The notes under the pieces: generated by a model
Database searches by the model: none
What the model was told of the DNA's origin: nothing
Seen by the model: the letters and a program-made list of their open reading frames with translations, nothing else
In this document: piece by piece, positions 1,653 through 57,845 of the stretch
Numbering within the stretch: position 1 is the first letter of the stretch
How the letters are laid out: each line of letters begins with the position of its first letter
Made by a program: the position numbers and the translations under genes
DNA from: an uncultured Gammaproteobacteria bacterium
GTDB lineage: Bacteria; Patescibacteriota; Patescibacteriia; UBA11705; JABHMO01
Direction of reading: 5' to 3'
DNA length: 64,000 nucleotides
Assembly (NCBI GenBank): GCA_964486065.1
Contig: CAZAKN010000001.1
Coordinates: 157,640 to 221,639 of the forward strand

Positions 1653-4409
1653 TTATATTTCCGGCGCTTTTTCAATTCTTAATTCCCCGCCCACATCATA
1701 GAAAACTTTATCTCGGCGACTGATATCACCTTTAAGCAAACGATTGGCCAACGCGTCCTCCACTTTTTCTTGGATAACGCGTCTGAGCGGTCTGGCTCCG
1801 AATTTCGGATCAAATCCGACTTCCGCCAACTCGGCCAAAGCCGCGTCGGTTACCGCGAACTCAATCCCTTTTTCGTCCAACCTTTTAACTACTCGACCGA
1901 CCATGAGACGAGCGATTTTTATCACATCCGTTAATGACAAAGGTTTAAACACGATCACGCCGTCAAAACGATTCAAAAATTCCGGCCGATAACTTTCTCT
2001 TAATTCATTTTCCAGAAGATGCGTTTTCACGCTTTCAATGTCCACTCCGGCCTTTATCTGATCTTGGATATAATGCGCGCCGGCATTGGATGTCATGATA
2101 ACGATGGTATTGGTAAAATCAACCGTGCGACCTTGCGCGTCCGTCAGACGACCATCATCCATCAATTGCAAAAAAACATTCAATATATCAGGATGCGCTT
2201 TTTCCACTTCATCAAATAAAAGTAAAGAAAAAGGATTTTTGCGCACTTGTTCGGTTAAAATACCGGGATTATCACCTCTACCGAGCATACGATCCAGAGA
2301 TGATTTTTCTTGATATTCACTCATGTCAATTCTGATCATGGCGTCTTCGCGACCGTAATAAACTTCCGCCACGGTTTTCGCCAATTCAGTCTTACCCACT
2401 CCGGTCGGACCGAGAAAGAGCATGCTGGCGATCGGTCTTTTCCCTTCTCGCAATTCAGCACGTGCGCGCCTGATGGATTTAGCCACCATGTCCACGGCCG
2501 GATCTTGACCGATCATTCTTTCATGAATTTTTTGTTCCAAATGCAAAAGTTTTTCCGTTTCACTTTCAGATACTTCGGTCAAAGGTATATTGGTCATATT
2601 GGAAACCACTTGTGCCACATCATCGGCGCGAACAACTTTATTCTCACCTTTTTCTTTGCGAACCTTGATGGCCGTCGCTTCCAAGATTTCAATGGCCTTG
2701 TCAGGCAAACGGCGATCATGAATATAGCGATCACTGAGTCGCGCCGCTTTCTCAATCGCCCCATAAGAAAAATAAACTTTATTCTGATATTCAATAACCC
2801 CGCTTTTCGCTTCCAAAACCCAAATCGCGTCATTAATTTCCATTTCTTTGATTTGAATCAATTGAAAAGCCGAATCCAAATTGGTATTTTCAATCGCTTT
2901 GCCGTAATCAGTCGGATTGGTGGTGGCGATAATGTGGAATAATCCTTTACGCGCGATATCGGCGAACACTTCCGCCAAATCCAAACTACTATCACCGCCC
3001 GCGGTGATGCCGGTCAAATTATGCAAATCTTCCACCGCCAAAACAATGTTACCCGAACGAATTATTTCATCCGTAACCTGTAAAATCCTTTGTTCGGCCG
3101 TAGCCGCGTCTGCGCCCGCCAGCAAACGAGATACGCTCAAACTAACCAATCTTTTATCTTGTAAAATTTCCGGTACATCTTCTATGGCCATGCGTTGCGC
3201 CAAACCGTGAATGATAGCTGTCTTACCCACGCCCAAAGATCCGTTCAGCAAAACTCCTTCTCGCGAACCTTCCATGATTTGAAAGATTCTTTCCATTTCC
3301 GCGTCGCGTCCGATACAAGGAAACAAACTTCCGTATTTGGCTTTCAAAGTTAAATCTTCACTGATTTTATTAAGTAAAGGCGTGGCTTGCGCTGTCATGG
3401 CTCTATCCAAACCGCTTTTCGGCTTATAGCGAGCTCTACCGCGAAAATGTTGTAAATTACGACGCAATTGTTCTTGTATCCTGATCCATGCCACCACATT
3501 TATAAGCTTTTGATAATCAAAACCCATTTCAATCAAAAGCTCTTCCACATCATCCGTTTCAACTTGCAAATCAATGTCTTGCGGTGAAGCCAAAGCCTGA
3601 ACCGCTTCCACCACGCTCACTTTAGTCAAACTATCTTCATAAGCATTATAATACGCCAGAAGCAAAAGTTTACGCATATTGGCGGAAAGAACCGGCTTAC
3701 CGGAACGACTTAAAATATTTTTCATGAGATAATTGCTGACCTTGGTTTTAAATGCACTAAAATCAATACCAAGCCGACCCAAAATAATCGCCGACTTATC
3801 AAACTCCGGCAACACGCCGAAAAAATGCGCGCGCTTCATTTCATGATGTCCGAAATGTTTGGCTAAACGCCATCCGGTTTCAACCGAACGAAGTGCGTCT
3901 TCAGTAAAAGAATCCGAAATATCCACGGTTTTATTCGCATAATCTTGCCAAACCTCGTTAAAAGTCAATTGTTCATGCCAAACATCCGTATCATCGTATT
4001 TCCGCTTCATCACGAAATTACCCATGGAAATTTCTTTTTCCAAACGATAATACAAATACAAAGCGATTAATAAGGTTATCCAAAAATATAATTTTTCCAC
4101 GCTCGGCGTAAACCAATATTGCAAAGAAAAAAATGTTTCAAAACCGCGATCATAACCGAAATATGCTAACCAAGCAATCCCTGAAACCGCGAAAATCGCC
4201 AAGAGCATATTGTAGACCATTTTAAAACGACGGCTGATTTTCGCAAATCCCAAATTGGCTTCATCATATTGTTTGCCCCAATACAAAATCCTATCGCGCA
4301 ATATCAAGCCAACTCCCGCGCCACGACAATTATCACACACTTCCCCGCCACTCGCGCCCGCGCCATCACAATGTGAGCAAGTTATAAAATTTAAATTTTT
4401 TTTATCCAT
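1653..4409 (-). CDS. clpC: ClpC/ClpB-like AAA+ chaperone ATPase with N-terminal CxxC zinc-finger and two predicted TM helices (membrane-anchored)
   Basis: Two Walker A motifs (GSLGVGKTAI and GPTGVGKTELAK). N-terminus CSHCDGAGASGGEVCDNCRGAG followed by hydrophobic segments. Confidence 0.8.
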   Translation of the reverse strand: MDKKNLNFITCSHCDGAGASGGEVCDNCRGAGVGLILRDRILYWGKQYDEANLGFAKISRRFKMVYNMLLAIFAVSGIAWLAYFGYDRGFETFFSLQYWFTPSVEKLYFWITLLIALYLYYRLEKEISMGNFVMKRKYDDTDVWHEQLTFNEVWQDYANKTVDISDSFTEDALRSVETGWRLAKHFGHHEMKRAHFFGVLPEFDKSAIILGRLGIDFSAFKTKVSNYLMKNILSRSGKPVLSANMRKLLLLAYYNAYEDSLTKVSVVEAVQALASPQDIDLQVETDDVEELLIEMGFDYQKLINVVAWIRIQEQLRRNLQHFRGRARYKPKSGLDRAMTAQATPLLNKISEDLTLKAKYGSLFPCIGRDAEMERIFQIMEGSREGVLLNGSLGVGKTAIIHGLAQRMAIEDVPEILQDKRLVSLSVSRLLAGADAATAEQRILQVTDEIIRSGNIVLAVEDLHNLTGITAGGDSSLDLAEVFADIARKGLFHIIATTNPTDYGKAIENTNLDSAFQLIQIKEMEINDAIWVLEAKSGVIEYQNKVYFSYGAIEKAARLSDRYIHDRRLPDKAIEILEATAIKVRKEKGENKVVRADDVAQVVSNMTNIPLTEVSESETEKLLHLEQKIHERMIGQDPAVDMVAKSIRRARAELREGKRPIASMLFLGPTGVGKTELAKTVAEVYYGREDAMIRIDMSEYQEKSSLDRMLGRGDNPGILTEQVRKNPFSLLLFDEVEKAHPDILNVFLQLMDDGRLTDAQGRTVDFTNTIVIMTSNAGAHYIQDQIKAGVDIESVKTHLLENELRESYRPEFLNRFDGVIVFKPLSLTDVIKIARLMVGRVVKRLDEKGIEFAVTDAALAELAEVGFDPKFGARPLRRVIQEKVEDALANRLLKGDISRRDKVFYDVGGELRIEKAPEI

Positions 4410-4791
4410 AAATAGTTTGTAAAAATCCCGCGTTGATGATTATTTGAAAAATCAAAAAAACTGGCAAAGCCATCCAAAACAAAAAAGCCACTATCGCGAA
4501 TATTACCCAAAACAAAAAAATAAAAAAGCGGAAAAAAATTTGCGCCAATCTAATGAAAAAACTGATCAATCTCCCCTGCCAATCATGTTGACCAAACATG
4601 GGTTTAAACAAATTTTTTACCCAAACCGATAAACCGATCTCTCGGTTTCCCGTGCGGATAGTGTTAATCATATTGGCAAAGGCTTTTTTCACTCCGCCCG
4701 TATACCACCAAATCGGCCAGCGTAGCAAATCAAAAATCACTTCATCTAAAATGAATTTTATTGACCTCAAAGCCAGATTATCATTAACCAT
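4402..4791 (-). CDS. Hypothetical small membrane protein
   Basis: 129-aa ORF with C-terminal hydrophobic helices. 4-nt overlap with the clpC start. Confidence 0.35.
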   Translation of the reverse strand: MVNDNLALRSIKFILDEVIFDLLRWPIWWYTGGVKKAFANMINTIRTGNREIGLSVWVKNLFKPMFGQHDWQGRLISFFIRLAQIFFRFFIFLFWVIFAIVAFLFWMALPVFLIFQIIINAGFLQTIYG

Positions 4792-4907
4792 AAATTTTTT
4801 TCTTAAATATGCTGTTTGGTTTTTTCAATTATACCATTTTTTACACATATAAAAAAGAATTTAATCAACAAATCCACATTTAAAAAAAAATAAAACACCG
4901 GGACACA

Positions 4908-4930
4908 TGATGTGTCCCGGCTGAAAACGT
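4908..4930 (-). terminator. Rho-independent terminator downstream of uvrD (ccgggacacat/atgtgtcccgg hairpin + T-run on minus strand)
   Basis: 11-nt inverted repeat preceded on plus strand by A-run. Confidence 0.55.
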
Positions 4931-4939
4931 GGGCAGCTG

Positions 4940-5095
4940 CACTTTTGGAATTCAAAGGGGAAATGAATTCCGTGTTTTTCCAGATGACAAGTATTAGCTC
5001 TTTCAACAGGCGGGAAATTTGTTAAGGTGGGGATGATAGGAATCTTGCTCGTTTTTGCTCATCGCTTTTCTTTCCGGTAGGACAGCTGCCTTGGC
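4940..5095. ncRNA. Candidate structured RNA element in the intergenic region (end-pairing ggcagctgc/gcagctgcc, internal 8-bp hairpin ggaattca..tgaattcc followed by T-run)
   Basis: Complementary ends about 140 nt apart, internal perfect hairpin at 4961-4985, no ORF. Confidence 0.2.
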
Positions 5096-5124
5096 ATTAT
5101 ACTGAATTAAAAATTTTTTGCAAG

Positions 5125-7101
5125 CTAATCATAGTAAATAACTTTTTCTTCATCATCGTAAAAATCTTGTTGATCATTATCAAAATATGAATTACTGCGT
5201 TCCACGGTAAATTTACTTTGATCAATTTCCCGCAAAAACATGGACGGCTCGGAACGCATTTCTCCGTATTTATAACTGAAACTTTTTACCGGATAATACA
5301 TATTCAATTCGTCTTTGGCTCGCGTAACCGCCACATAAAACAAACGCCTTTCCTCTTCCAAGTCTTTGGTATTTTCCATACAGCGTTGATGCGGGAAATG
5401 CCCATCGCGCAAACCGATGATAAAAACATACGGCCATTCCAATCCTTTGGCTTGATGGATGGTGGACAAAACCACGGCATTTTGACTACCACTTTCCGCG
5501 CGATCAAAATTTTCACTCAGCGCCACATCCGCCAAAAGCTCATCCAAGCTTTGATATTTGGACGCGAAATCAGCGAACTGTCGCAGATCATCTAAACGAT
5601 CTTTGTAATTTTCATACGAATTTCTCAAATATTCACTATATCCCGCTTCAATAATCAAATCCACGGCTTCCGCCAAATTACCCGTTTTCATTGACGCTAA
5701 ATTTTTCAAAACGAATTTCAATTTATCCATGGACAGCCCGGCTTTGCCTGATAAGCCGTAATCAAACTTGGCCGCTTCGTGCAAATCTTTCAACTCGGCA
5801 ATCATTTTCCAAATCTTCATGGCACCTTTCAAACCGATCCCCTCTTGCTTTAATAAAACTCTTTGCCAAGCCAATTCATCTCGCAAATTGGCCATGATTT
5901 TCAAATACGCGGTCAAATCTTTGATATGCGCTTGTTCAAAATATCTCATGCCACCGCGGATTATATAAGGAATATTATTTTTACTAAGCTCCAATTGCAA
6001 TGAAGCTGATTGGAAATTGGCGCGATACAGAACCGCCATGTCTCCATAATTCGCGCCTGAACGATATAATTCCATGACGCGTTTTAAAACTTTTACGGTT
6101 TGTCCGTTTTCATCTCTGGCCGGGATTAAACCGGGCAAAAGACTACTCGGCCTTTCCGCTGATAAATCTTTTTGATATTGATTAAGATTTTTTTTAATTA
6201 TTTCATTGGCCAAATCCAGAATCTGAGGCGTGCTGCGATAATTTTTTTCTATTTTGAAAATTTTGGCTTGAGGAAAAAGATTTGGGAAGTTTAAAATATT
6301 TCTTACATCAGCAGCGCGAAAAGAATAAATACTTTGCGAATCATCCCCCACCACCAAAACATTTTTATGATGATCGGCCAAAAGCTTGATAATTTCCGCC
6401 TGAATATAATTGGTGTCTTGATATTCGTCCACCAAAACATATTGAAATTTTTTCGCGTAATAATTTTTCACTTCCGGAAAATCTTGCAACAGTTTCAACC
6501 AATTGGTCAGCAAATCATCAAAATCCATACCATTCACTTCCTTTTTCTTGATTTCATATCGCGAAGCGATTTGTTCGGCTTGATTGGCCACGGGCATGGG
6601 ATAACCGTAATGTTCGGTAGCGGTTTCTTGAATTCCCGCATTGGTATTACGCGCGTAGCTAAGCAAACTCAGCACAACACTCGGCTTGGGGAAATTTTTC
6701 CCTTTGGTATCCAGACTCAGCTCGGACATTATGTTTTTAATCATGGAAACACTATCTTCTTGATCCATGATAGTGAAATTATTTTTATAACCGAGTTTTG
6801 GCGCGTGTTGGCGCAAAATCAAATTGGCAATATGATGAAAAGTTCCACCATGCATCCCTCGTGGTTTTTCTCCCAATAAAGATTCCACGCGATCCAGCAT
6901 TTCCTTAGCCGCTTTATTGGTAAAAGTAACCAAAATAATGTTTTGTGGCTCAATTCCTTGTTCAATCAAATAAGCTACACGAAAAACCAAGGTTCTAGTC
7001 TTCCCACTTCCCGCTCCGGCTAAAACCAAGGCCGGACCATCACCTTGAGTAACGACTTTATATTGCTCTAAATTTAGATGTTTTTTATAATCAATCAGCA
7101 T
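5125..7101 (-). CDS. uvrD: ATP-dependent DNA helicase UvrD/PcrA (SF1)
   Basis: Walker A GAGSGKTRTL, UvrD motifs, 658 aa. Confidence 0.9.
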   Translation of the reverse strand: MLIDYKKHLNLEQYKVVTQGDGPALVLAGAGSGKTRTLVFRVAYLIEQGIEPQNIILVTFTNKAAKEMLDRVESLLGEKPRGMHGGTFHHIANLILRQHAPKLGYKNNFTIMDQEDSVSMIKNIMSELSLDTKGKNFPKPSVVLSLLSYARNTNAGIQETATEHYGYPMPVANQAEQIASRYEIKKKEVNGMDFDDLLTNWLKLLQDFPEVKNYYAKKFQYVLVDEYQDTNYIQAEIIKLLADHHKNVLVVGDDSQSIYSFRAADVRNILNFPNLFPQAKIFKIEKNYRSTPQILDLANEIIKKNLNQYQKDLSAERPSSLLPGLIPARDENGQTVKVLKRVMELYRSGANYGDMAVLYRANFQSASLQLELSKNNIPYIIRGGMRYFEQAHIKDLTAYLKIMANLRDELAWQRVLLKQEGIGLKGAMKIWKMIAELKDLHEAAKFDYGLSGKAGLSMDKLKFVLKNLASMKTGNLAEAVDLIIEAGYSEYLRNSYENYKDRLDDLRQFADFASKYQSLDELLADVALSENFDRAESGSQNAVVLSTIHQAKGLEWPYVFIIGLRDGHFPHQRCMENTKDLEEERRLFYVAVTRAKDELNMYYPVKSFSYKYGEMRSEPSMFLREIDQSKFTVERSNSYFDNDQQDFYDDEEKVIYYD

Positions 7102-7214
7102 AAATTTCCTTTATTTTAGCATAAATACATGATTAACAAAACATGTCCAGCCTTGACTTTTTTTAAAAAATATGATACACTTACATATTGTTGTTTGACA
7201 GTCTAACCTTCCGT

Positions 7215-7235
7215 GACGCCGAATTCTTCGGCGCC
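7215..7235 (+). promoter_or_regulatory. Perfect palindrome (a/g)GCGCCGAATTCTTCGGCGCC in the leader of a small ORF, copy 1 of a duplicated ~52-bp leader
   Basis: Leader identical over 7217-7269 and 7681-7733, including RBS aaggag and ATG. Confidence 0.6.
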
Positions 7236-7263
7236 ACTCAACCTTTTGCAAAGGAGCAAAAAG

Positions 7264-7671
7264 ATGAATATGATTTCCAGCGCCAAGACCATCGCGGAAA
7301 CCCTACGGGAGATCCGCGAAAACAAGCACCATGAACTCTCGTTCATGGTGAAAGAAGCGCGAGAGGAGTGGCAAAAGCGTAGTAAATGCTTTGAGCAAAA
7401 GCTCCTCCAAGTCATCGCCGGCAAAAACTCCGATGAGGAGCTTTCCGACGATGATTTGCAGGTAGTATTCTGCGCGCACCTATTTTTAATTGCTATCTCC
7501 CTCCAAAAAGGATGGGCGGAGGAGCTAGAATTTGCATCCCCCAATTTGGAGGATGCCGTGGTGATCTGGCAGATGCTCGAAGCCAAACGAGCCATGGAGG
7601 CTATTGAGCGAGGGGAGATGGAAACCATCACCCTCGAAGAAGCACAAACAAGATGGGGCCTCACCGACTAA
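7264..7671 (+). CDS. Hypothetical acidic helical protein (136 aa), first gene of a GC-rich two-gene islet
   Basis: RBS aaggagcaaaaagATG. Local GC is clearly higher than the flanks. Confidence 0.5.
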   Translation: MNMISSAKTIAETLREIRENKHHELSFMVKEAREEWQKRSKCFEQKLLQVIAGKNSDEELSDDDLQVVFCAHLFLIAISLQKGWAEELEFASPNLEDAVVIWQMLEAKRAMEAIERGEMETITLEEAQTRWGLTD

Positions 7672-7679
7672 CCACCCGT

Positions 7680-7700
7680 GGCGCCGAATTCTTCGGCGCC
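7680..7700 (+). promoter_or_regulatory. Second copy of the palindromic leader GGCGCCGAATTCTTCGGCGCC
   Basis: Exact repeat of the 7215-7269 leader immediately after the stop of the preceding ORF. Confidence 0.6.
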
Positions 7701-7728
7701 ACTCAACCTTTTGCAAAGGAGCAAAAAG

Positions 7729-7905
7729 ATGAATAATAAGGAAAAGGAAAAACAGTACTGCGAGAGGATGGAAACCATCCTCGGTCTGATCGCCGCCGAA
7801 CGCGGATTGCGTAGAGGCGTTTTCACGGAGTTCAACGAACAGGAAGTTCAAAGATTGCGCGCCGAACGGAAAGAAAGGCGCGCCGAACAAACGACCATTC
7901 AATAA
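7729..7905 (+). CDS. Hypothetical small charged protein (59 aa), second gene of the islet
   Basis: Same RBS and leader as upstream gene, followed by terminator. Confidence 0.45.
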   Translation: MNNKEKEKQYCERMETILGLIAAERGLRRGVFTEFNEQEVQRLRAERKERRAEQTTIQ

Positions 7906-7911
7906 AAACAT

Positions 7912-7945
7912 AACCGCCAATCCCACAGGATTGGCGGTTTTCTAT
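7912..7945 (+). terminator. Rho-independent terminator (ccgccaatcc-cac-aggattggcgg + TTTTCTATTT)
   Basis: 10-bp stem, T-rich tail. Confidence 0.7.
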
Positions 7946-7959
7946 TTGATTTAAATATA

Positions 7960-8496
7960 TTATTCCTTCGGCATACTAAACTCACATCCGCAATAATTCT
8001 GTCTATGAAAGCCTTGTTCAGCGCTCAATTCACAAGCTTTCTTATAACCATCATTTTTTCGCCAGATCATATCAATGAATCGCAAGTTATATTTAGTCGC
8101 GATTTGGTGACCGATTTCATTTATTTGTTCAGCGTTTTTCAGTGGACTGATAGTCAGAGTGGTGGCCAAAGCCTCAACTTTCAACTCCTCGGCTTTTAAA
8201 GCGGTTTTATTTAGTCTGTGGGAAAAACAAATCGCGCAACGATCACCACGCTCCGGCACTTGTTCCAACCCCTTAATCTCACTCAGCCACTCTTGCCGAT
8301 CATAATTTTCTTGAAAAAACTTCACTCCCCTAGCTTCGCAGAATTGCTTCATTTCATCTTTGCGCCAATCATGTTCTTTCCGCGGATAAATATTAGGATT
8401 AAAAAAATAAACCGCCACATCATGACCGTCCTCCAATAATTTTTCTAAAACATAAGCGCCACATGGCGCGCAACAATCATGAAGCAATATTTTCAT
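7960..8496 (-). CDS. queH: Epoxyqueuosine reductase QueH (DUF208)
   Basis: N-terminal HDCCAPC motif, CxxC motifs, 178 aa. Confidence 0.8.
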   Translation of the reverse strand: MKILLHDCCAPCGAYVLEKLLEDGHDVAVYFFNPNIYPRKEHDWRKDEMKQFCEARGVKFFQENYDRQEWLSEIKGLEQVPERGDRCAICFSHRLNKTALKAEELKVEALATTLTISPLKNAEQINEIGHQIATKYNLRFIDMIWRKNDGYKKACELSAEQGFHRQNYCGCEFSMPKE

Positions 8497-17881: not shown

Positions 17882-19012
17882 TCACTTGAACAGGTTAATA
17901 ATATCTTTCCCCGTGACGATCAAAACCAAAAGCATTAGCAAAGCAAAACCGATCGTATGCACCACTTGTTCAACTTTTTGACTAACGGGTTTGCGACGGA
18001 TTTTTTCAATCAAGATAAACAAAACACGTCCGCCATCCAAAGCCGGTAAAGGTAAAAAATTAATAATCGCCAAATTTATTGACAATAGCGCCGTGAATTG
18101 CAAAGCGTAATTTATGCCCATGCGCGCCACTTTGCCGGTCATAACGGCGATTCCTACCGGTCCGGCCACTTCCACACCAACGGGTTGTCCGACAATCGCA
18201 TTTTTAATTATCGTGACGAAAGCAACTATTATTTGAATGAATAAATTATAAGTGGCTTTCAATCCCAACCAAATTGATTTATACCATGGATAAGACACGA
18301 TTCCGGTTTTTTCAATTCCCACTCCAAGCACCGCCCGCTCACCTGTTTCATTTTCCGGCAAAACCTGTGGCGTGGCTGATAAAAGAACCGGCTCACCGTA
18401 TCTGGAAATTTCAATTTCCATGCTTTGACCGTTTTTTGAAGCAACATAATCTTGCACTTCGGTAATTTCGCTGAATGAAAAACCGTCCAAAGCGACAATG
18501 GCGTCACCAAGTTCAATCCCCGCTTCCGTAGCCGGAGAGTTTGCCACCAAGGACATGACTTGCATTTTCTCGTCTGAAACTTTGGCACCTTCTTCAACAT
18601 TGCTTAAAACTTGCGGACTGCCCAATGTAAAAACCAACATGAGACAAATCGCCGCCAAAATTATATTCATAGTTACGCCCGCGGATAAAATAATGCTTCG
18701 CTTCCAAGGTTTTTTGGCGGCAAAACTGTCCGGATCTTTACTTTCACCATCTTCACCTTTAATTTTAACGAAACCTCCGAGCGGAATCCAATTGAGCGAC
18801 CAGATGGTATCTTCCGATTCATGTTCTCCGCTTCCCCAAAAAAATTTTCTTTTACCGTTAACTTTTTTCCAGCCGAAAACGCGAGGCGGGAACCCAAACC
18901 CGAATTCTTCGGCTTTTACGCCGAACATTCTGGCGGTGGCGTAATGTCCCAGCTCATGCACGAACACCAACACCGACAACACCAAAACAAATACGATTAT
19001 GGTAAATGCCAT
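17882..19012 (-). CDS. rseP: Site-2 protease RseP (M50 zinc metalloprotease with PDZ domain)
   Basis: HELGHY and LDGG motifs, PDZ segment. Confidence 0.85.
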   Translation of the reverse strand: MAFTIIVFVLVLSVLVFVHELGHYATARMFGVKAEEFGFGFPPRVFGWKKVNGKRKFFWGSGEHESEDTIWSLNWIPLGGFVKIKGEDGESKDPDSFAAKKPWKRSIILSAGVTMNIILAAICLMLVFTLGSPQVLSNVEEGAKVSDEKMQVMSLVANSPATEAGIELGDAIVALDGFSFSEITEVQDYVASKNGQSMEIEISRYGEPVLLSATPQVLPENETGERAVLGVGIEKTGIVSYPWYKSIWLGLKATYNLFIQIIVAFVTIIKNAIVGQPVGVEVAGPVGIAVMTGKVARMGINYALQFTALLSINLAIINFLPLPALDGGRVLFILIEKIRRKPVSQKVEQVVHTIGFALLMLLVLIVTGKDIINLFK

Positions 19013-42713: not shown

Positions 42714-44150
42714 TCAAGATTTGGCATATCTTGGATCTTTTTTAACAAGTTCCGAGCCCACCAACATTAATCCGCAAGGTAGCCACATTTTGGCTATAAA
42801 ATATGAAGTGGAAAAAAGTTGCGCGAAAAACATTCCGCCGGCCATGAGAAACAATGCCAAAATCAACATTTGACCTTCGTGATTAACACTGAAAAACATT
42901 TTGCCCGTGCGATAAAACAACCATATAAAAAATATGACAAATGAAATAAATCCGAATAAGCCGGTTTCGGTTAAAAGTTTTTGGATAAAACCATGGGCAT
43001 CCAAGGGATCACCGTATTGAACCCAAAAAGCGAATGTTTCACCGATGATTTCTTGAAAAGTTCCCAATCCATGCCCGACAAATGGATGTTCTCCCCAAGC
43101 GGACAAAGTGATCATGGTCATCATCAAACGATTGGAAGTGGAAGTTTGCACTTCCTTTTCTTGCACCCAAACGGTAGAATAAAAAACTCCCATCGCCAAA
43201 ACAAGTAAAACCAAAACCGCGATTATTTCAAATTTTTTGAATTTGAATTTTATCAAATGATCTTTGTATAAAAATAAAGCCAAAGCTAAAACCTGTAAAC
43301 CCAAAACCAGCCAGCCCGTTCGCGAAAATGTCAACATAAGCACGATGCTCATAAACAAGATGGCCAATAAATACCAACCCTGATGCTTGATTTTCCTCGC
43401 CGTGAAAAATAAAAACAAAGCCGCCGGCACGGCAATTATCAAACTTTCCGCCACAGCGTTATGATTCCCCTCCAGCCAATTCAATCCGAAAATCGGCCAC
43501 GGCGTGGCTCTACGCATAAACCAACCTCCTTCACTGAAAAGAACGGTCAAAAATCCCAGCGTAGCTGACAATAGTCCACCCGCCAAAATCATCCAAAGAA
43601 TTTTTTTTAATTCCACTTTACTTTTTATGATATTGAACGGCAAAACCATAAACATGATGTAAGCGAAAACCAAAGGACGAAGAAAAAACTCAGCAGACAA
43701 CTGCCAGTGCGGAGTATTGATAAAAGATAAAGCCGATGCCACGAAAAAAATCAAGGCATAAGTCCAACCGGGCATGCGAGTTATGCTGGGCTCCTCCGGA
43801 GAGGGACGACAGACTGCGCCTTTAAGAAATTGACCGGTTAGCATGCGCATTAAAATTCCTGCAAGTAAAAGCAAAGCGAATAAATCAACATACGGGACAC
43901 TGAATCCGAAAGTTTCGGCTCTCAACCCCCAAAACGGCATAAAAAATGCCATTAAATAAAGTCCCAAAATCGGATAGACCGCAAACAATAAGGATATCAA
44001 CATGGCCACTTCAAAAAACAAAACATAAAGCCATGGAAAAAAATAACTGCCTATAAAACCGGCTATCACAAAAACAATTAAGAAAAAGCCACTCATTTTT
44101 TTCAAATCCTCAGCACTCAATTTAAATGTTTTATTATTCATATTGTACAA
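42714..44150 (-). CDS. O-antigen ligase/polymerase-like (Wzy_C family) polytopic membrane protein
   Basis: About 12 TM helices with large periplasmic loop, 478 aa. Confidence 0.55.
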   Translation of the reverse strand: MYNMNNKTFKLSAEDLKKMSGFFLIVFVIAGFIGSYFFPWLYVLFFEVAMLISLLFAVYPILGLYLMAFFMPFWGLRAETFGFSVPYVDLFALLLLAGILMRMLTGQFLKGAVCRPSPEEPSITRMPGWTYALIFFVASALSFINTPHWQLSAEFFLRPLVFAYIMFMVLPFNIIKSKVELKKILWMILAGGLLSATLGFLTVLFSEGGWFMRRATPWPIFGLNWLEGNHNAVAESLIIAVPAALFLFFTARKIKHQGWYLLAILFMSIVLMLTFSRTGWLVLGLQVLALALFLYKDHLIKFKFKKFEIIAVLVLLVLAMGVFYSTVWVQEKEVQTSTSNRLMMTMITLSAWGEHPFVGHGLGTFQEIIGETFAFWVQYGDPLDAHGFIQKLLTETGLFGFISFVIFFIWLFYRTGKMFFSVNHEGQMLILALFLMAGGMFFAQLFSTSYFIAKMWLPCGLMLVGSELVKKDPRYAKS

Positions 44151-44260
44151 ATTATAGCATATTTTTGATTATAATCACACAAAAAAAGTCTGTTCACAAA
44201 ACACGGAATTCCAAACATGGAAAATTCTTAACGATCTATGATCCGTGTTTTGTGGCAAAT

Positions 44261-44292
44261 AAAAAAGGCGGAAGCTGTTGCTTCCGCCTGAA
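44261..44292 (-). terminator. Terminator of the giant gene (ggcggaagc-tgtt-gcttccgcc, T-run on minus strand)
   Basis: 9-bp stem, A6 before on plus strand. Confidence 0.7.
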
Positions 44293-44310
44293 AGTTATAA
44301 AGAACGAAGT

Positions 44311-47300
44311 TTACAAATCAAGATCATTGCAGTCAAACCCGTCAATGGTAACCGCGGCCTTGGTTTGGAAACCTTCCTGAATGGAATAGGGCGTTCCTCC
44401 ACCCAGTTCCACATTGGTCACATTGGTGACCATGCCGTTGTTTTCCGGCCAGGCCAGCCAATCCGTCTCATTGTGGCAATTGTATTCCAGCCACGGGGTT
44501 TCGGTATCTTCATGGTTGCCCCAGACACAGACATCCCGCAAGGAGACAGTCTTAGTGCCGGAGACTTCCGGATCCGAATCCCAGATGTTATCGCCCGTAC
44601 CGAGCTTACCCCATACCAAGTACAAAGTATTGTCGACTGGACAAGTAAAGTGGACGGTCAAGCATCCTTCATCGGTGCGACCGTCGCAGTCATTATCTTC
44701 TCCATCGCAGACTTCCACACCGGGATTAACCGGCGAACAAGCATACTCGCAACCGTTGCGGGGATTTTCGTCAACATCGTAATATCCGCTATTGCAGACA
44801 TCGGGCTGACAACTCCCCTCCTGACACGAGTAGTTCGCGACATTGAGGTACTGCAGATAGGAACAGCTGTTGCCACAGGCGCCACAATGGTTACGGTCAG
44901 TTTGAAGATCAAAGCCTTCATCAACCTCACCGTTACAATCATTGTCCACACCGTCGCAAGCTTCGGTTCCGCCGTTGGTCATGCCACAGGGACCGTATTC
45001 ACAGCCATCCTCGTCATTTCCATTGGCGTCGTAGTAACCGCTGACGCAACTGTTCACCCGACACACACCGCTAACACAACCGGTGGCGGAAGTGTTTTGT
45101 AGCAAAGTGTTGCAGTCATTACCGCAACCGCCACAATTGGCTTCATCCGTGGACTTATTAAAGGTCTCGTCCACCTGACCGTCGCAGTCATCGTCCAAAT
45201 CATTGCAGACTTCCGAGGTCAACGGCATAACCGCGTCCTCACAATCTCCCCAAGTAAAGCCATCCAGACAAACTTGAGTACCAAACTCGCAAATGCCTTG
45301 CTCATTGGCGGGTCCGCAATCACGAACCGCTCCGGCCTGACAAATACAGCCTTCATCCGTCGTCCCGTCGCAATCGTTGTCCACGCCGTCGCAACTTTCC
45401 ACGACCGACATGTCTTCCGATCTTCCGGGCATGGTGGAGCAGGCGTAATCATTCAGACCATCGCACTCAATCACACCAGGTCCGGCGCAAGCACCAAGAC
45501 CGTAACAAAGCGCGCCAACGAAATAATCTTCGTCGGTTTGTCCGTCAAGGTCGTTGTCCTTACCATCGCATAGTTCGGATGCGCCCGGATAAACCGAACT
45601 GTCATTGTCGACCGTATCTCCTTCGCAAATCCGAACTCCATCTTCATCGGAGTCGTTTTCGTTCACGGGAACGGAACCGTCGCAGTCGTCATCCAAACCG
45701 TTGCACAGCTCAGTGGCTTCCGGCATGATCGCATCGAGGCAATCACCCCAGGACATACCGTCCGGCGAACAAGTCTGCGTTCCAAAAACGCAAATCCCTT
45801 GTTCATTGGCGGATCCACAATCGCGAGTTTCGCCGGCTACGCAGGTACAACCTTCGTTCACCGAGCCATCGCAATCATCGTCCAAACTGTTACCACAGCT
45901 TTCCACGCCGGACATATCTTCCGATCCGCCGGGCATGGTGGAACAACGATAGGTGTTGAAAGTAGCGCACTCAATAGTGCCAGCTCCGCAAACACCGATA
46001 CCGTTACAGCTGGCACCGATAAAGAAGTCTTCATCCACCATCCCGTCGCAATCGTTGTCTTGGCCATCGCAGAGTTCCGCGTTACCGGGGAAATTATCCG
46101 GATCCAAGTCATCGCAATCATTATCGCAAACCTTGATTCCGTCTTCATCCTCATCCGCTTCCTCCGCGGGGATAACACCGTCGCAGTCATCATCCAAACC
46201 GTTGCAAGATTCCGCTTCGGCCGGTTCAACCGCTCCGACGCATTCCAACCACGATTTGCCGTCTTCGGCGCAGGTTTCCAAGCCATACTCGCAAGCTCCG
46301 ACATCGGTCGTACCGCATTGGCGAGTGACGCCTGCCACACAAACACACTCGGCATCGTTGATATCAACTAAGCCGTCGCAGTCATCGTCCAATCTGTTAC
46401 CACAAACTTCTTCGGAAGAAGCATCCGCGGAGCCACCGGGCATGGTATCGCACATTACGGTCGTCGTGGTGGCGCATTCCAATACGCCGACACCGCAAGC
46501 ACCCACGCCTTGGCAGGCATTACCGACACCGAACGACTCGTCCACCTGCTCATCGCAGTTGTTATCCAGTCCATCGCAGATTTCAAGCGACAAGGGATTG
46601 ATGGTGGCTTCAGCGTCATTGCAGTCTCCCGCGCAAACGCGAACACCATCTTCATCCTCATCCGCTTCTTCCGCGGGAACGGAACCGTCGCAGTCGTCGT
46701 CCAAACCGTTACAAAGCTCGGATTCTTCCGGCATGACCGCTCCGACACATTCACCCCAACCGTCTCCGGCCGGATTACAGGTTTGCACTCCGAACTCGCA
46801 AATGCCTTGATCCGTTTCCGGACCGCATGCGCGAGTGGAAGCCGGACGACAATTGCAATCATCATCGTTCAAATCAACGAGTCCATCGCAGTCATCATCC
46901 ATACCGTTATCGCAAACTTCCGTGGCGGAAGCATCAGCCGAACCGCCGGGCATGGTATTGCATTGCACGGAATTATCCGTAGCGCATTCCAAAGTCCCCG
47001 GCGTATCACCGCAAGCTCCGATTCCCACGCAAGCCGAGCCGACGAAATATCCTTCGTCCACCTGCTCATCGCAGTTGTTATCAATCCCATCGCAGAGTTC
47101 AAGCGACAAGGGGTTGATGGTGGCTTCAGCGTCATTGCAGTCTCCCGCGCAAACGCGAACACCGTCTTCATCCTCATCCGCTTCCTCCACGGGAATAACA
47201 CCGTCGCAGTCATCATCCAAGCCATTGCAAGATTCCGCTTCGGCCGGTTCAACCGCTCCGACACATTCCAGCCACGATTTGCCGTCTTCGGCGCAGGTTT

Positions 47301-49146
47301 CCACGCCATATTGACACTCACCGACATTGGTCGTGCCACATTGGCGGGTCTGCCCGGGGAAGCAAATGCAACCGTTGTTGACTACACCGTCGCAATCGTC
47401 GTCCAATTCATTGCCACAATCTTCGGCAATGGATTCATCAGCCGAACCTCCCGGTTCAGTGGAGCAACGCGTTTCGGTTTCACCGGCGCATTCCACCACC
47501 CCGACGCCACAAGCGCCGAGACCTTCGCAAGGCTCGCCAATCCCGAATCCCTCGTCAATCTGATCGTCGCAGTTATTATCCACGCCGTCACAGATTTCCA
47601 AGACATCGGGGTTGATGGTCGCCAAAGCGTCATCGCAATCACCTTCACAGATGCGGAAACCGTCTTCGTCCTCATCCGCTTCGTTGGCCGGGATTTGATC
47701 ATCACAATTGTTATCCAGCCCGTCGCAGATTTCCTCCGCTTCCGGATGGATCAACTTGTTCAGATCATTGCATTCCTCGCAAGCCAGAAATCCGTCTTGA
47801 TCAAGGTCAACTTCCGTTTCCAGCTTTTCGCCGTCACAGTTATTGTCCTTGCCGTCGCAAATTTCTTCGGCTTCCGGGAAAACAGCCGGATCCTGATCAT
47901 CGCAGTCTCCCGCGCAATTCAGGATGCCGTCCTCGTCTTGATCAACTTCATCCTCCGGCACTTGGCCGTCGCAGTCGTCGTCAAGACCATTGCATTCCTC
48001 GGCTTCCAAAGCCTGGCTTTCGGAGCCACCGGGCATGGTGGAGCAAATGACTTGCTCGGCATTGTCGGGATCGCATTCGTAAACGCCTTCACCGCAAATA
48101 CCTTGACCGGTGCAAACCTCTCCGACTTCATAGTCTTCGTCGGTTTCACCGTCGCAATCATTGTCCTTACCGTCGCACAGTTCAGCTTCGGCGGGCATAA
48201 CCGCGCCTTCACACTCACCCCATTCCCAAGTTTGATCCTCGGTTTGGAGGCAAGTCTGAATACCGAATTCGCATTCCCCTTCTGCAGTCTCGGGACCGCA
48301 ACGCCGAATATCATTCGGCTGACAAGTGCACTCTTCCTCGTCGGTTTCACCGTCGCAATCATTGTCGCGATCGTCCTCGCAAATCTCCGTCGGATTATCA
48401 GGATCGTCCACATAGCAGACATCCTCACCTTCCGGATATTCGCATCCGTCTTCCGGATCCAGATTGGCATCATGCTTACCACTTTCACAAGCGGTAATCT
48501 CGCACAAGCCTTCTTCGCAAACAAATTCTGCGACTTGCAGACCATCAAACTCAGCCTGACAGCTGTAGCCACATTCTCCGCAGTTTTCCGGATCCTCGGC
48601 CAGATTAAACTCTTCGTCAATCTCGCCATCGCAATCATTGTCCACGCCGTCACAGGTTTCCGTCTCCGGATCCACATTGCCTATGCAATTGGTCCATTGA
48701 CCCTGTTCATCGCAAACACGAAACCCCATTTTGCAAGGGGAAGTGTTTTCCGCGTCGGCGGAACCGCATTCCTCTCGCTCTCCGGGCGAACACTGTCCAT
48801 CCGGAATCACTTCGTCTTCATCACCATCCACCAAGTCGGCATAATCAAGCCAACCATCGTAGAGACAGTAACTGCCTCTACAACTGAAACCGGGTTCGGA
48901 ATAAACATCCAATCCCGCTCTCAGGCAATCTTGATCGGTTTCGCAACCGGTCACGATACAAGTTCCTGACAAGCAAGACGCCTGACTGATGGTACAGTCC
49001 GACGGCGTATCGCACTTCTCCGGGAAATTGACGAGTCCGGATTGATCTCCGTCCTCATCCGCTTTTTTCCCGCCGTTGCCGTCATCACATCCGGCGCCAT
49101 ACAGCGCGAAAAGCGTGATGAAAAAAATGGCCATCAATTGCTTCAT
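44311..49146 (-). CDS. Giant secreted Cys-rich repeat lipoprotein (about 1611 aa). It has about 20 MopE-like putative metal-binding repeats C.G.DNDCDG..DE interleaved with Cys-knot-like modules, and a distinct C-terminal domain. True start is ATG at 49146 (track ORF starts at an upstream TTG)
   Basis: Lipobox LYGAGC. Recurring CDG[VLK]DNDCDG..DE and C.G.G.C.G..EC motifs. RBS aaggagagaatcATG. Confidence 0.75.
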   Translation of the reverse strand: MKQLMAIFFITLFALYGAGCDDGNGGKKADEDGDQSGLVNFPEKCDTPSDCTISQASCLSGTCIVTGCETDQDCLRAGLDVYSEPGFSCRGSYCLYDGWLDYADLVDGDEDEVIPDGQCSPGEREECGSADAENTSPCKMGFRVCDEQGQWTNCIGNVDPETETCDGVDNDCDGEIDEEFNLAEDPENCGECGYSCQAEFDGLQVAEFVCEEGLCEITACESGKHDANLDPEDGCEYPEGEDVCYVDDPDNPTEICEDDRDNDCDGETDEEECTCQPNDIRRCGPETAEGECEFGIQTCLQTEDQTWEWGECEGAVMPAEAELCDGKDNDCDGETDEDYEVGEVCTGQGICGEGVYECDPDNAEQVICSTMPGGSESQALEAEECNGLDDDCDGQVPEDEVDQDEDGILNCAGDCDDQDPAVFPEAEEICDGKDNNCDGEKLETEVDLDQDGFLACEECNDLNKLIHPEAEEICDGLDNNCDDQIPANEADEDEDGFRICEGDCDDALATINPDVLEICDGVDNNCDDQIDEGFGIGEPCEGLGACGVGVVECAGETETRCSTEPGGSADESIAEDCGNELDDDCDGVVNNGCICFPGQTRQCGTTNVGECQYGVETCAEDGKSWLECVGAVEPAEAESCNGLDDDCDGVIPVEEADEDEDGVRVCAGDCNDAEATINPLSLELCDGIDNNCDEQVDEGYFVGSACVGIGACGDTPGTLECATDNSVQCNTMPGGSADASATEVCDNGMDDDCDGLVDLNDDDCNCRPASTRACGPETDQGICEFGVQTCNPAGDGWGECVGAVMPEESELCNGLDDDCDGSVPAEEADEDEDGVRVCAGDCNDAEATINPLSLEICDGLDNNCDEQVDESFGVGNACQGVGACGVGVLECATTTTVMCDTMPGGSADASSEEVCGNRLDDDCDGLVDINDAECVCVAGVTRQCGTTDVGACEYGLETCAEDGKSWLECVGAVEPAEAESCNGLDDDCDGVIPAEEADEDEDGIKVCDNDCDDLDPDNFPGNAELCDGQDNDCDGMVDEDFFIGASCNGIGVCGAGTIECATFNTYRCSTMPGGSEDMSGVESCGNSLDDDCDGSVNEGCTCVAGETRDCGSANEQGICVFGTQTCSPDGMSWGDCLDAIMPEATELCNGLDDDCDGSVPVNENDSDEDGVRICEGDTVDNDSSVYPGASELCDGKDNDLDGQTDEDYFVGALCYGLGACAGPGVIECDGLNDYACSTMPGRSEDMSVVESCDGVDNDCDGTTDEGCICQAGAVRDCGPANEQGICEFGTQVCLDGFTWGDCEDAVMPLTSEVCNDLDDDCDGQVDETFNKSTDEANCGGCGNDCNTLLQNTSATGCVSGVCRVNSCVSGYYDANGNDEDGCEYGPCGMTNGGTEACDGVDNDCNGEVDEGFDLQTDRNHCGACGNSCSYLQYLNVANYSCQEGSCQPDVCNSGYYDVDENPRNGCEYACSPVNPGVEVCDGEDNDCDGRTDEGCLTVHFTCPVDNTLYLVWGKLGTGDNIWDSDPEVSGTKTVSLRDVCVWGNHEDTETPWLEYNCHNETDWLAWPENNGMVTNVTNVELGGGTPYSIQEGFQTKAAVTIDGFDCNDLDL
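45420..48050. repeat. About 510-bp near-identical tandem DNA repeats (about 5-6 copies) inside the giant gene. Each unit encodes ...MPGGS(A/E)D.S...DDDCDG...C.YG.ETC...
   Basis: Long identical nt stretches, for example 46601-46700 vs 47121-47220. The MPGGS-encoding segment recurs at about 45430, 45935, 46440, 46950, 47455 and 48040. Confidence 0.75.
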
Positions 49147-49164
49147 GATTCTCTCCTTTGTTGT

Positions 49165-49181
49165 CCCCAAAAATTTTGGGG
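49165..49181 (-). promoter_or_regulatory. 5'-UTR palindrome CCCCAAAAATTTTGGGG immediately upstream of the RBS of the giant gene
   Basis: Near-perfect inverted repeat. A homologous CCCCCTAAATTTTGGGGGG sits in the same position in gene 53823-54857. Confidence 0.55.
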
Positions 49182-49342
49182 AGATTTAGGAAAACAGTAA
49201 AAGTAAACAAATTGTCAAACTTCACAAACTCTCATTCAAGGGGTTTTACAAATGAACAAATACTTTATTCATTCATAAAAATCCTTGAAGATCATACCTG
49301 CAACTTACCACGATTACTAATAAAAATAAATATTAAGACACA

Positions 49343-49388
49343 ATTTGCAGACATTTAATTTTAGCAAAAATAAGAACTTTTGTCAAGT
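49343..49388 (-). promoter_or_regulatory. Candidate promoter of the giant gene (minus strand TTGACA-17-TAAAAT), giving an about 195-nt 5'-UTR
   Basis: Plus strand tgtcaa at 49383-49388 and atttta at 49360-49365. Confidence 0.45.
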
Positions 49389-49417
49389 GTTGTTATTTAC
49401 ACATTTTTAGCTAATTT

Positions 49418-49450
49418 TAAATAAAAATTCCCCGAGACTGATAGTCTCGG
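49418..49450 (-). terminator. Terminator of gene 49463-51400 (ttccccgagact-gat-agtctcggggaa)
   Basis: 12-bp stem, A-run before on plus strand. Confidence 0.7.
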
Positions 49451-49462
49451 GGAATGATGAGT

Positions 49463-51400: not shown

Positions 51401-51480
51401 TACTCTGTCTCCTTGCGGGCAACCATGCCCGCTGCTGTTAAGGTTTTTCCGAAATGAAATTTCTGAAAGAACGATATATT

Positions 51481-51509
51481 ATTCTATCAAATTTTGGCAT
51501 TTTTGTCAA
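51481..51509 (-). promoter_or_regulatory. Consensus-like promoter (minus strand TTGACA-17-TAGAAT) for gene 49463-51400
   Basis: Plus strand attcta...17 nt...tgtcaa. Confidence 0.55.
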
Positions 51510-51555
51510 TAGTACTTAGCAAAATTAGTGCATTTGGAAATTTTTGCCTAAATTT

Positions 51556-51580
51556 AAACAAAAACCCGTGCGTTTTACGC
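51556..51580 (-). terminator. Terminator of gene 51596-53677 (cccgtgcg-tttta-cgcacggg)
   Basis: 8-bp stem with flanking A/T runs. Confidence 0.7.
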
Positions 51581-51595
51581 ACGGGTTTGAATTAT

Positions 51596-53677: not shown

Positions 53678-53794
53678 GATATTCTCCTTTTTTTTGATTG
53701 TTTAAAGGAACAAACTAACATTATACTGTAACAAATTTTTAATCTTTTGGCAAGTGCCAAAGGTGATTAATTAAAACACAATAATTAAAAAACC

Positions 53795-53821
53795 ATGCGG
53801 TCAGACCGCATGGTTTGTTTT
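53795..53821. terminator. Bidirectional terminator (ccatgcggtc-aga-ccgcatgg)
   Basis: 9-bp stem flanked by A5 and T7. Confidence 0.7.
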
Positions 53822-53822
53822 T

Positions 53823-54857: not shown

Positions 54858-54876
54858 TATTCTCTCCTTTGTTTGT

Positions 54877-54895
54877 CCCCCCAAAATTTAGGGGG
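54877..54895 (-). promoter_or_regulatory. 5'-UTR palindrome CCCCCTAAATTTTGGGGGG upstream of the RBS of gene 53823-54857
   Basis: Homolog of the 49165-49181 element. Confidence 0.5.
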
Positions 54896-55018
54896 AAGTT
54901 GAAGTTCTTTGCTTTTTTCAAAGAGCAATTTGATGTTTAAAATTAACAAATTTTTTAATCTTTGTCAATAGCCATTGATTATTCCTTGAAATATCACCTA
55001 AATTTAAATAAAAAAGCT

Positions 55019-55043
55019 CCGTTGGATTTCCAACGGAGCGTTG
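55019..55043. terminator. Terminator (ctccgttgga-tt-tccaacggag)
   Basis: 10-bp stem, T-runs on both strands. Confidence 0.7.
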
Positions 55044-55051
55044 TTTTTTTG

Positions 55052-56035: not shown

Positions 56036-56160
56036 GGCGTCCTCCTTTTTTTTGGGATAAAAATTTTTTGAAAAGAACAATTTATATTATCAAATAATCT
56101 TATTTTTGTCAAGTATTATGCCATTTTTAGTGTTTTTGTAAAATATTTTTTAATATTAAA

Positions 56161-56190
56161 AAATCCGCTCCATTTGGAGCGGATTATGGT
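56161..56190 (-). terminator. Terminator (atccgctcca-tt-tggagcggat)
   Basis: 10-bp stem, A5 before on plus strand. Confidence 0.7.
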
Positions 56191-56202
56191 TGTTTAAAGA
56201 AC

Positions 56203-57072: not shown

Positions 57073-57176
57073 GGGTTCCTCCTTGCAACTCCGAAAATCG
57101 GGCTGCGCTAGAATTTTCAAAAAGACCACCTCTGGATTATTCCAGCTTAAAAGCTTAACTCATTAAGCCCTTAAGT

Positions 57177-57213
57177 TGAAGGGAAATTGCATCTTGCAAT
57201 TTCCCGTTTGAGG
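57177..57213 (-). terminator. Terminator (gggaaattgca-tct-tgcaatttccc)
   Basis: 11-bp perfect stem. Confidence 0.65.
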
Positions 57214-57216
57214 TTA

Positions 57217-57838: not shown

Positions 57839-57845
57839 ATTCTTT

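Follow-up and report, generated by a model that had tools for sequence, protein, structure and literature searches.

A Polymorphic Orphan Gene Behind a Repeated Stem-Loop Leader at the queH-uvrD Junction of a Patescibacterial Genome

In this study, we analyzed a small two-gene islet in a stretch of 64,000 nucleotides (contig CAZAKN010000001.1, positions 157,640 to 221,639; hereafter the window) from an uncultured bacterium of the Patescibacteriota. The islet is located on the plus strand between uvrD (5125-7101; UvrD-helicase in Pfam, E 4e-81) and queH (7960-8496; QueH, E 2e-64), which are both on the minus strand, and it contains two open reading frames, ORF1 and ORF2, each preceded by a copy of the same leader. 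Our results showed that ORF1 is polymorphic in the population and that the two genes differ in age, ORF2 being the older one. We lean, with little more than even confidence, to the view that the islet is a small accessory operon in a variable chromosomal slot, and that ORF1 was inserted later, in a recent and reversible event, behind a duplicated ORF2 leader.

Presence and Absence of ORF1 in Public Read Sets

One contig in the Logan assembly of run SRR7048223 (L010) is 100% identical to positions 2817-7270 of the window and then resumes at 7736. The difference is a clean 465-bp deletion in which ORF2 is kept, and the one remaining leader has the 5' flank of leader copy 1. In a second run, SRR7048224, two flanking contigs end at 7246 and 7706, each exactly 30 nt (k-1) into a 54-nt core that the two leader copies share. 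Such ends are characteristic of an assembly graph (k = 31) with two paths entering the core and two leaving it, so the ORF1-containing arrangement is present in SRR7048224; in SRR7048223 it either does not occur or was too rare to be retained when the graph was cleaned. ORF1 is thus polymorphic in the population. The locus, first reported in a preliminary description made from the window alone, was recovered from these two independent read sets in its native context, that of the candidate phyla radiation (CPR).

Different Ages of ORF1 and ORF2

Searches with QueH placed the organism in the Patescibacteria/Parcubacteria, its nearest relatives having only 63% QueH identity apart from one sister genome (GCA_964434655.1). 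The contig of this sister genome, L011, is 93-96% identical to the window at the nucleotide level and carries the single homologue of ORF2, P0003. On L011, uvrD is followed by the promoter region known from the window, a leader of 31 nt that differs from the window leader, the same Shine-Dalgarno (SD) sequence and start as in the window (AAAGGAGCAAgAAGATGAATA), the ORF2 homologue, the terminator of the islet and finally queH, and no ORF1 is present. The homologue has 57 aa and differs by an in-frame 3-nt indel. In Nei-Gojobori comparisons of the window with L011, the synonymous divergence (dS) of ORF2 was 0.19 and its omega was 0.45, compared with 0.15 and 0.09 for queH, 0.21 and 0.04 for the N-terminus of uvrD, and 0.21 and 0.11 for a 147-aa gene. 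The dS of ORF2 equals that of the flanks (0.15-0.21) and the indel is in frame, indicating that ORF2 has been vertically inherited with the flanks and is coding. ORF2 is a fast-evolving yet constrained small gene, an older resident of the site and no recent import.

ORF1 and the palindromic leader are, on the sequences compared, specific to the lineage of the window. The preliminary description likened the islet to a horizontally acquired module and proposed looking for it in related genomes. This gave a divided answer, with ORF2 present in L011 and ORF1 absent there, and the idea of a single acquired module has to be abandoned because ORF2 occupies the same site in L011 with a dS like that of the flanks; only ORF1 and the leader are confined to the one lineage. 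The SD sequence and ATGAATA are common to the window repeat and the ORF2 of L011 (20/21 nt). The last 21 nt of the repeat are the ancestral ribosome-binding site and start of ORF2, and ORF1 therefore uses a copy of the ORF2 initiation region. Parsimony between the window and L011 favors a gain of ORF1 in this lineage, and it is only in this way that we infer insertion rather than deletion.

The Variable queH-uvrD Junction

In more distant relatives, the gene order is gatCA, a 147-aa gene, a large surface protein and queH on one side of the junction, and uvrD, dNK (deoxynucleoside kinase) and clpB on the other. The junction itself is variable. In L016 it is empty (4534-4593), queH and uvrD being 58 bp apart; L017 has one 143-aa orphan gene on the strand of the islet (4581-5012); and L012 and L013 carry a 148-aa homologue of the L017 gene (30% identity, E 7e-21) together with an unrelated 135-aa ORF (L012 4614-5545). 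None of the junction genes of L012, L013 and L017 resembles ORF1 or ORF2. The junction, where distant relatives have unrelated small genes or none at all, is therefore an insertion hotspot.

The inserts found at the junction in relatives are mildly GC-richer than their flanks. It was also observed that dNK lies just beyond uvrD, away from queH, in L012, L016 and L017, and that the window has no dNK between uvrD and the 129-aa and clpB-like genes (4402-7101 compared).

The Repeated Leader and Its Predicted Hairpins

The leader is a direct repeat of 73 nt with 93% identity between copies, within which 54 nt are exactly identical (7217-7270 and 7682-7735). It is the sole near-exact non-coding repeat in the 64 kb: neither half of it recurs elsewhere in the window, and shuffled window sequence gave zero matches to it. 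A leader of 52 bp, identical before both ORFs, had been described previously; the repeat is real, but the string quoted for it has 54 nt and is exact only at copy 2 (7681), copy 1 having an A (7216) where the string begins with G. All five mismatches between the copies fall within the 5' 19 nt (P about 8e-4 under random placement). This confinement to the 5' end fits a crossover inside the identical core between leaders with separate 5' histories, and the same pattern also fits homogenisation of the core by recurrent exchange.

Each copy consists of a GC-rich palindrome, a hairpin with the SD sequence in its loop, and ATGAATA, which is the start codon plus the next 4 bases. The SD sequence AAAGGAG (7250-7256 in copy 1) is located 7 nt upstream of each ATG, that of ORF1 being at 7264. 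A perfect 9-3-9 palindrome had been reported in each leader. It is perfect in copy 2, where it extends to 11-3-11, but copy 1 contains a mismatch (Table 1). The accompanying suggestion of an RNA hairpin agrees with our folding results, in which the palindrome forms a stable hairpin as RNA, and stem-loop 2 in its 86-nt leader context had z = -5.3 relative to shuffles. No T-run follows either stem-loop, and the terminator scan, which applies a sequence criterion only, called neither of them; they are considered non-terminating because of the missing U-run. An RNase III site is also unlikely, as an 11-bp stem is too short.

Other identities of the leader were considered. Rfam gave no credible match in the region, nor any at gathering thresholds across the window, and a known riboswitch or non-coding RNA was rejected accordingly. 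A LexA or Cheo-box reading of CGAA-TTC-TTCG was rejected on inspection, the half-site spacing being wrong. Searches of species-representative genomes with the leader returned 8 matches, in high-GC actinobacterial and proteobacterial genomes and one Lentisphaeraceae metagenome-assembled genome, all of which were judged to be chance, and searches of viral contigs and metagenome contigs of the Joint Genome Institute (JGI) returned no match. A 14-mer at the palindrome center, CCGAATTCTTCGGC, recurs once at 18900-18913 inside a minus-strand gene, probably by chance.

The ORF1 and ORF2 Proteins

Both ORFs have the properties of coding sequences. A codon model derived from 36 long window ORFs ranked the annotated frame first of six for each, and the GC contents at codon positions 1, 2 and 3 were 0.58/0.33/0.62 for ORF1 and 0.55/0.36/0.59 for ORF2, a coding-like pattern with the second position lowest. 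Two antisense ORFs of 153 and 133 aa scored worse in the codon model, had no Pfam match and are broken up in L011. The preliminary description was right about the charges, acidic for the first protein and basic for the second, but its lengths of 136 and 59 aa should read 135 and 58 aa. The two proteins show no similarity to each other, and neither has a paralogue within the window. A 13-nt palindrome, GATGGAAACCATC, occurs in ORF1 (7617-7629) and ORF2 (7767-7779) in the same frame, where it encodes M-E-T-I, and is kept in the ORF2 of L011; it may be due to chance (blastn E 1.7 within the window) or may be a trace of shared history.

No homologue had been recognised by eye for either protein, and library searches likewise assigned neither to a family. 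Nothing exceeded the thresholds in Pfam, NCBIfam, PHROGs or PADLOC, ORF2 had no Pfam or NCBIfam match at all, and sequence searches of the PDB gave no match for either protein. The possibility that both ORFs would turn out to be well-known core proteins was not borne out, neither matching a recognised family. ORF1 matched no protein but itself, either in a clustered set of 5.8 billion proteins or, with phmmer at E <= 0.001, in a set of 1.84 billion representatives. Two sub-threshold similarities were noted in residues 102-135 of ORF1, to Unstab_antitox PF09720 (E 0.015, 15.7 bits versus a cut-off of 23.3) and to the RelB-like NF048017 (E 7e-4, 19.8 bits versus a cut-off of 50). No helix-turn-helix (HTH), ribbon-helix-helix (RHH) or other recognisable DNA-binding domain was found in either protein. 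The AlphaFold model of ORF1 is all-helical with low confidence (pLDDT, the per-residue confidence score, 51) and was too poor for a structure search. That of ORF2 is a two-helix hairpin with pLDDT 75, for which Foldseek gave nothing at E <= 0.001 (best YnzC, E = 9), and a profile of ORF2 had no match in metagenome contigs.

Searches of phage genomes with tblastn linked ORF1, at E ~1e-3, to a 212-aa hypothetical protein of Bacteroides thetaiotaomicron phages, whose gene is located directly after that of the large terminase. The two proteins share 36% identity over 95 columns, and ORF1 has in common with the phage family the motif P-x-LED-x(2-3)-WQMLE-x-(K/R)RA, residues ~42-117 of ORF1 being aligned. 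A profile was built from nine members of a family of 136 phage records, and hhalign of ORF1 against it gave a probability of 84.7%, E 7e-6 and a score of 40.1, with only ~70 columns aligning. Shuffling ORF1 150 times gave a mean score of 12.8 +/- 2.3 and a highest score of 20.1, and reversing the sequence gave 12.2. ORF1 has 135 aa compared with ~200-230 aa in the phage family, aligns with an internal gap and is without the conserved C-terminal CSFEEAK...NYSD domain. ORF1 is therefore probably a shortened relative of remote phage-related ancestry, a relationship that carries no functional information. Viral contigs contained nothing similar to ORF1 alone, and a profile of ORF1 plus the phage proteins recovered the same Bacteroides phages only.

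The phage family is itself unannotated. Its members have ~200-230 aa, and their genes directly follow that of the large terminase in phages of Bacteroides, Phocaeicola and Parabacteroides, as in BT709P1 (L015 2435-3073; WAX10011.1) and 135 other phage records. They are conserved and have no Pfam, PHROG or PDB match.

Genomic Setting and Features of the Islet

The preliminary description of a plus-strand cassette set between uvrD and queH agrees with our results, in which the islet has a promoter-like site of its own and a strong terminator (Table 1). Transcription of the islet is predicted to start at ~7189, and positions 7102-7200 are almost invariant between the window and L011. The terminator reported earlier is indeed strong: its stem-loop (7912-7939) has a 12-bp stem with 7 GC pairs followed by a T-run, is called on both strands, and has a folding free energy (dG) of -20.2 and z = -5.8. 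The predicted -10 elements of the islet promoter and of the divergent uvrD promoter, which are consensus matches only, overlap back to back at 7172-7181. The divergent islet and uvrD units might compete for RNA polymerase. The genes called within ~5 kb include ligA, gatC, gatA, a clpB-like and a TSP3-like gene and several small ORFs without Pfam match, and no recognised recombinase is among them.

Table 1. Features of the islet and its borders, in window coordinates.
Feature	Position	Strand	Remarks
Sigma-70-like islet promoter	7153..7181	+	TTGACT, 17 nt, TG-extended TACACT; from a consensus scan, putative function
Promoter-like site for divergent uvrD	7172..7201	-	CTGTCA, 18 nt, TATCAT; from a consensus scan only
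Leader copy 1	7198..7270	+	5' part (~7201-7216) diverged from copy 2
Stem-loop 1	7213..7237	+	GTGaCGCCGAA-TTC-TTCGGCGCCAC; one A.C mismatch; RNA dG -12.7 kcal/mol
Translation-initiation hairpin	7238..7267	+	CUUUUGC-AAAGGA-GCAAAAG; SD in loop; dG -6.7
ORF1	7264..7671	+	135 aa; isoelectric point (pI) 4.8; acidic; predicted all-helical
465-bp gain/loss unit	7271..7735	+	ORF1 body plus one leader copy; breakpoint ambiguous within the 54-nt core
Leader copy 2	7663..7735	+	5' end overlaps the last codons and stop codon of ORF1
Stem-loop 2	7678..7702	+	GTGGCGCCGAA-TTC-TTCGGCGCCAC; perfect 11-3-11 palindrome; RNA dG -19.9
ORF2	7729..7905	+	58 aa; pI 9.0; basic; predicted helical hairpin; 82% aa identity to the L011 homologue
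Bidirectional intrinsic terminator	7912..7947	.	12-bp stem, 4-nt loop, T-run; shared with convergent queH; kept in L011

The islet was also described as GC-richer than its flanks. This is correct (0.503 versus 0.33-0.43), but the value is not extreme for the window, as 13% of the 700-nt segments across the 64 kb match or exceed it, mainly because of a GC-rich block at 44-60 kb. The genes of the window itself span a GC content of 0.33-0.56, so GC richness is weak evidence for transfer and composition alone says little.

The block just mentioned (44000-60000) is a far larger compositional anomaly than the islet, with a GC content of 0.46-0.55 compared with ~0.39 over most of the remaining window. 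It holds a minus-strand ORF of 1619 aa (44311-49170) with many MopE-type, Cys/Asp-rich, putative metal-binding repeats (PF11617, E 4e-117), and several acidic, internally repetitive ORFs without Pfam match are located downstream of it.

Discussion

In the reading that we favor, one sigma-70-type promoter (7153-7181) would drive a transcript that ends at the terminator (7912-7939), and the layout would be promoter, stem-loop leader, ORF1, a repeated stem-loop and ribosome-binding cassette, ORF2 and terminator. ORF1 would be a later insertion between the promoter and ORF2, and it would be translated because it stands behind an exact 54-nt copy of the ORF2 leader with its stem-loop, SD-in-loop hairpin and ATGAATA. 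At the RNA level, the repeat may give each cistron the same translation-initiation context, with the SD-in-loop hairpin standardising initiation, and the stable stem-loop located 5' of each cistron and 3' of ORF1 may act as an exonuclease barrier or a processing boundary. As DNA, both copies would be substrates for homologous recombination that deletes or re-inserts the 465-bp unit, and recombination between them would explain the alleles with and without ORF1. Transcription of the islet, the RNA role of the hairpin and the direction of the event are parts of this reading that we infer. An RNA-level role of the repeat is favored because the 11-bp complementarity is contiguous, which is typical of selection for pairing over protein contacts, because the missing U-run speaks against a terminator, because the stem-loop is fused to a complete initiation region, and because neither protein has a recognisable DNA-binding fold. 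In addition, L011 keeps ORF2 without the palindrome, so ORF2 is unlikely to depend on the palindrome as an operator.

Several points weigh against this reading. ORF1 is known from one sequence only, and selection on it is not measurable. The roles given to the promoter and the hairpins come from consensus scans and folding only, and with ~24 nt between the predicted transcription start and stem-loop 1, the position is less than ideal for a protector of the 5' end. Equally, a protein could use a perfect palindrome at such a place, downstream of a promoter, as its operator. The leader of L011 has a short GCCACA-TTGG-TGTGGC hairpin at the matching place, but this 6-bp hairpin is indistinguishable from chance (z = -1.4) and conservation of the hairpin is not established. 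Moreover, the contig without ORF1 in SRR7048223 could reflect low-coverage ORF1 k-mers and graph simplification in place of a true allele.

The preliminary description compared the islet to a regulatory or toxin-antitoxin-like module. In such a module, one protein would bind the palindrome at both copies and repress the operon, and the acidic and basic proteins would form a neutralising pair. Two small adjacent genes of opposite charge do share one promoter with a perfect palindrome downstream of it, ORF1 has the weak matches to PF09720 and NF048017, and the palindrome of copy 1 is centered ~60 bp upstream of the putative uvrD start, where it could touch the control of uvrD. However, both motif matches are far below the curated cut-offs and overlap the segment that aligns to the phage family, and PADLOC found no match. 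ORF2 occurs without ORF1 in both L011 and L010, which shows that the pair is not obligate, and the ORF2 of L011 is 82% identical but has a completely different leader, arguing against recognition of the palindrome by ORF2. The predicted folds, a two-helix hairpin for ORF2 and no HTH or RHH in either it or the acidic ORF1, point in the same direction, and a 58-nt spacer with a strong hairpin is atypical for toxin-antitoxin pairs. We thus regard such an auto-regulated module as improbable, and the earlier comparison is not supported for a gene found alone in two genomes or alleles, with sub-threshold motif matches only and no PADLOC match for the pair.

A different explanation is that the leader belongs to a dispersed family of portable cassettes for regulation and recombination, comparable to those of T4-type phages or, in function, to integron attC, by which promoterless orphan genes move from site to site or genome to genome as small circles, here as the 465-bp unit of ORF1 plus leader. 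Integration or excision of a circle at a repeat predicts exactly what was found, a gene between two repeat copies and a precise allele with a single copy. The identical core with diverged 5' parts suggests two older leader lineages over one fresh duplication, ORF1 looks foreign and remotely phage-related, the junction is a hotspot in relatives, and the shuffling of orphan genes and release of mini-circles by promoter-early stem-loop (PeSL) cassettes is documented in phages (PMC2839356). Against this, there are two copies only, with none elsewhere in the 64 kb or in viral or JGI metagenome contigs and only chance matches in species-representative genomes. The 3' 21 nt of the repeat are the ancestral SD and start of ORF2, which argues for a local copy, and no recombinase is found among the genes called within ~5 kb. 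This explanation is therefore considered rather unlikely. There is a small chance that the leader is more specifically a portable cassette for expression and recombination that lets the streamlined CPR bacteria capture promoterless phage-derived orphans, in circles of ~0.5 kb, at a fixed expression hotspot and lose them again through homologous recombination alone, with no need for a dedicated integrase. If true, it would be a chromosomal counterpart of the phage PeSL mini-circles, a claim based on two copies at one locus.

It is also conceivable, if doubtful, that ORF1 is non-functional cargo, a phage-like fragment that entered the leader through a duplication or an illegitimate event, with an incidental frame and shared start, and that is now being lost. 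ORF1 is a single sequence in the sets of 5.8 billion and of 1.84 billion proteins; its alignment covers the phage protein only in part, being gapped internally and truncated at the C-terminus; its model has a pLDDT of 51; it is missing from a deletion allele; and the 153-aa antisense ORF shows that long ORFs are cheap at 50% GC. On the other hand, the frame stays open over all 135 codons: its strong SD and ATG are copied in register, and its stop codon precedes the following stem-loop by 6 nt. In the host codon model this frame outscores the other five, and its GC1/2/3 values are coding-like. Far less probable than any of these readings is an artefact of assembly or cloning, through a chimeric join via the short repeat or through a vector or linker. 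The palindrome contains EcoRI and NarI sites, the EcoRI site arising simply where GAA at the end of the arm meets TTC of the loop, and the 54-nt repeat is longer than k = 31 and the Logan assemblies disagree at this place. Yet every junction recurs in two independent read sets, identical at each base and in native CPR context, the contigs break exactly where a true two-context repeat predicts, and the right-hand copy has its own diverged 5' flank that is continuous with the ORF1 stop codon. EcoRI (29) and NarI (12) sites are common in the window, and blastn against plasmids found no match. The cloning origin raised in the preliminary description is excluded by the native context in both read sets, the negative plasmid search and this ordinary site frequency.

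If the insertion of ORF1 behind a copied leader is the right reading, the locus would show gene gain and loss caught in the act in a population of Patescibacteria, which have very small genomes and in which the acquisition of new genes is poorly documented. Copying a resident leader and start codon would be a cheap way to express a foreign orphan gene, and the copied leader would also allow the gained gene to be lost again. With its two very small and tractable orphan proteins and its defined element of 54 nt, the locus is suited to experimental work. Its wider importance is limited, with one locus and two copies known; it is a tidy example of gene gain and loss and no new kind of system.

Comparison With Known Systems

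The terminator at 7912-7947 corresponds to the definition of an intrinsic (Rho-independent) terminator, with a GC-rich stem-loop and then a T-run closing the operon. The islet shares several traits with type II toxin-antitoxin operons: a pair of small genes in the same orientation that encode an acidic and a basic protein, a palindrome close to the promoter, and a variable slot. It differs from them in that there is no significant family match and no predicted DNA-binding fold, the pairing is not obligate, the genes are set apart by a long structured spacer, and the palindrome is not conserved together with ORF2. The islet also resembles integron cassettes, with a promoterless orphan ORF behind a fixed promoter, palindromic repeats as bounds and variation in the population. 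Unlike integrons, no integrase adjoins the locus, its neighbors being uvrD and queH, and the exchange is compatible with plain homologous recombination. By inspection, the repeat also differs from the imperfect, bulged attC site: its palindrome is short and perfect, stands 5' of each ORF and is joined to the SD sequence and ATG.

Stem-loops that stabilise mRNA are exemplified by the repetitive extragenic palindromic (REP) element between malE and malF and by the 5' hairpin of ompA. The islet shares with them a GC-rich stem-loop without U-tract that is placed between cistrons and in the 5' untranslated region, near the stop codon of the upstream gene. In contrast to REP stem-loops, those of the islet are outside the dispersed REP family and are fused to an exact copy of a translation-initiation region, and their role in stability would be putative.

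The closest precedent is the PeSL cassettes of T4-type phages, in which repeated modules of promoter, stem-loop and SD sequence flank orphan genes, recombine to delete or insert them, and release mini-circles (Arbiol et al., 2010, PMC2839356). The islet differs in several respects. The good promoter match (7153-7181) is outside the repeat, and the matches inside it overlap the SD sequence and ATG and are unable to serve the ORFs; the stem-loop is without U-run and hence is no terminator; only two copies are present in the 64-kb window, with no dispersed copies found; the host is a bacterial (CPR) chromosome and no phage; and part of the repeat is the SD sequence and start codon of a resident gene. 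Nevertheless, as in the phages, near-identical repeats of stem-loop and SD sequence flank an orphan gene in a variable region, related alleles differ by the clean presence or absence of this gene with one cassette left behind, and the same topology predicts small circles.

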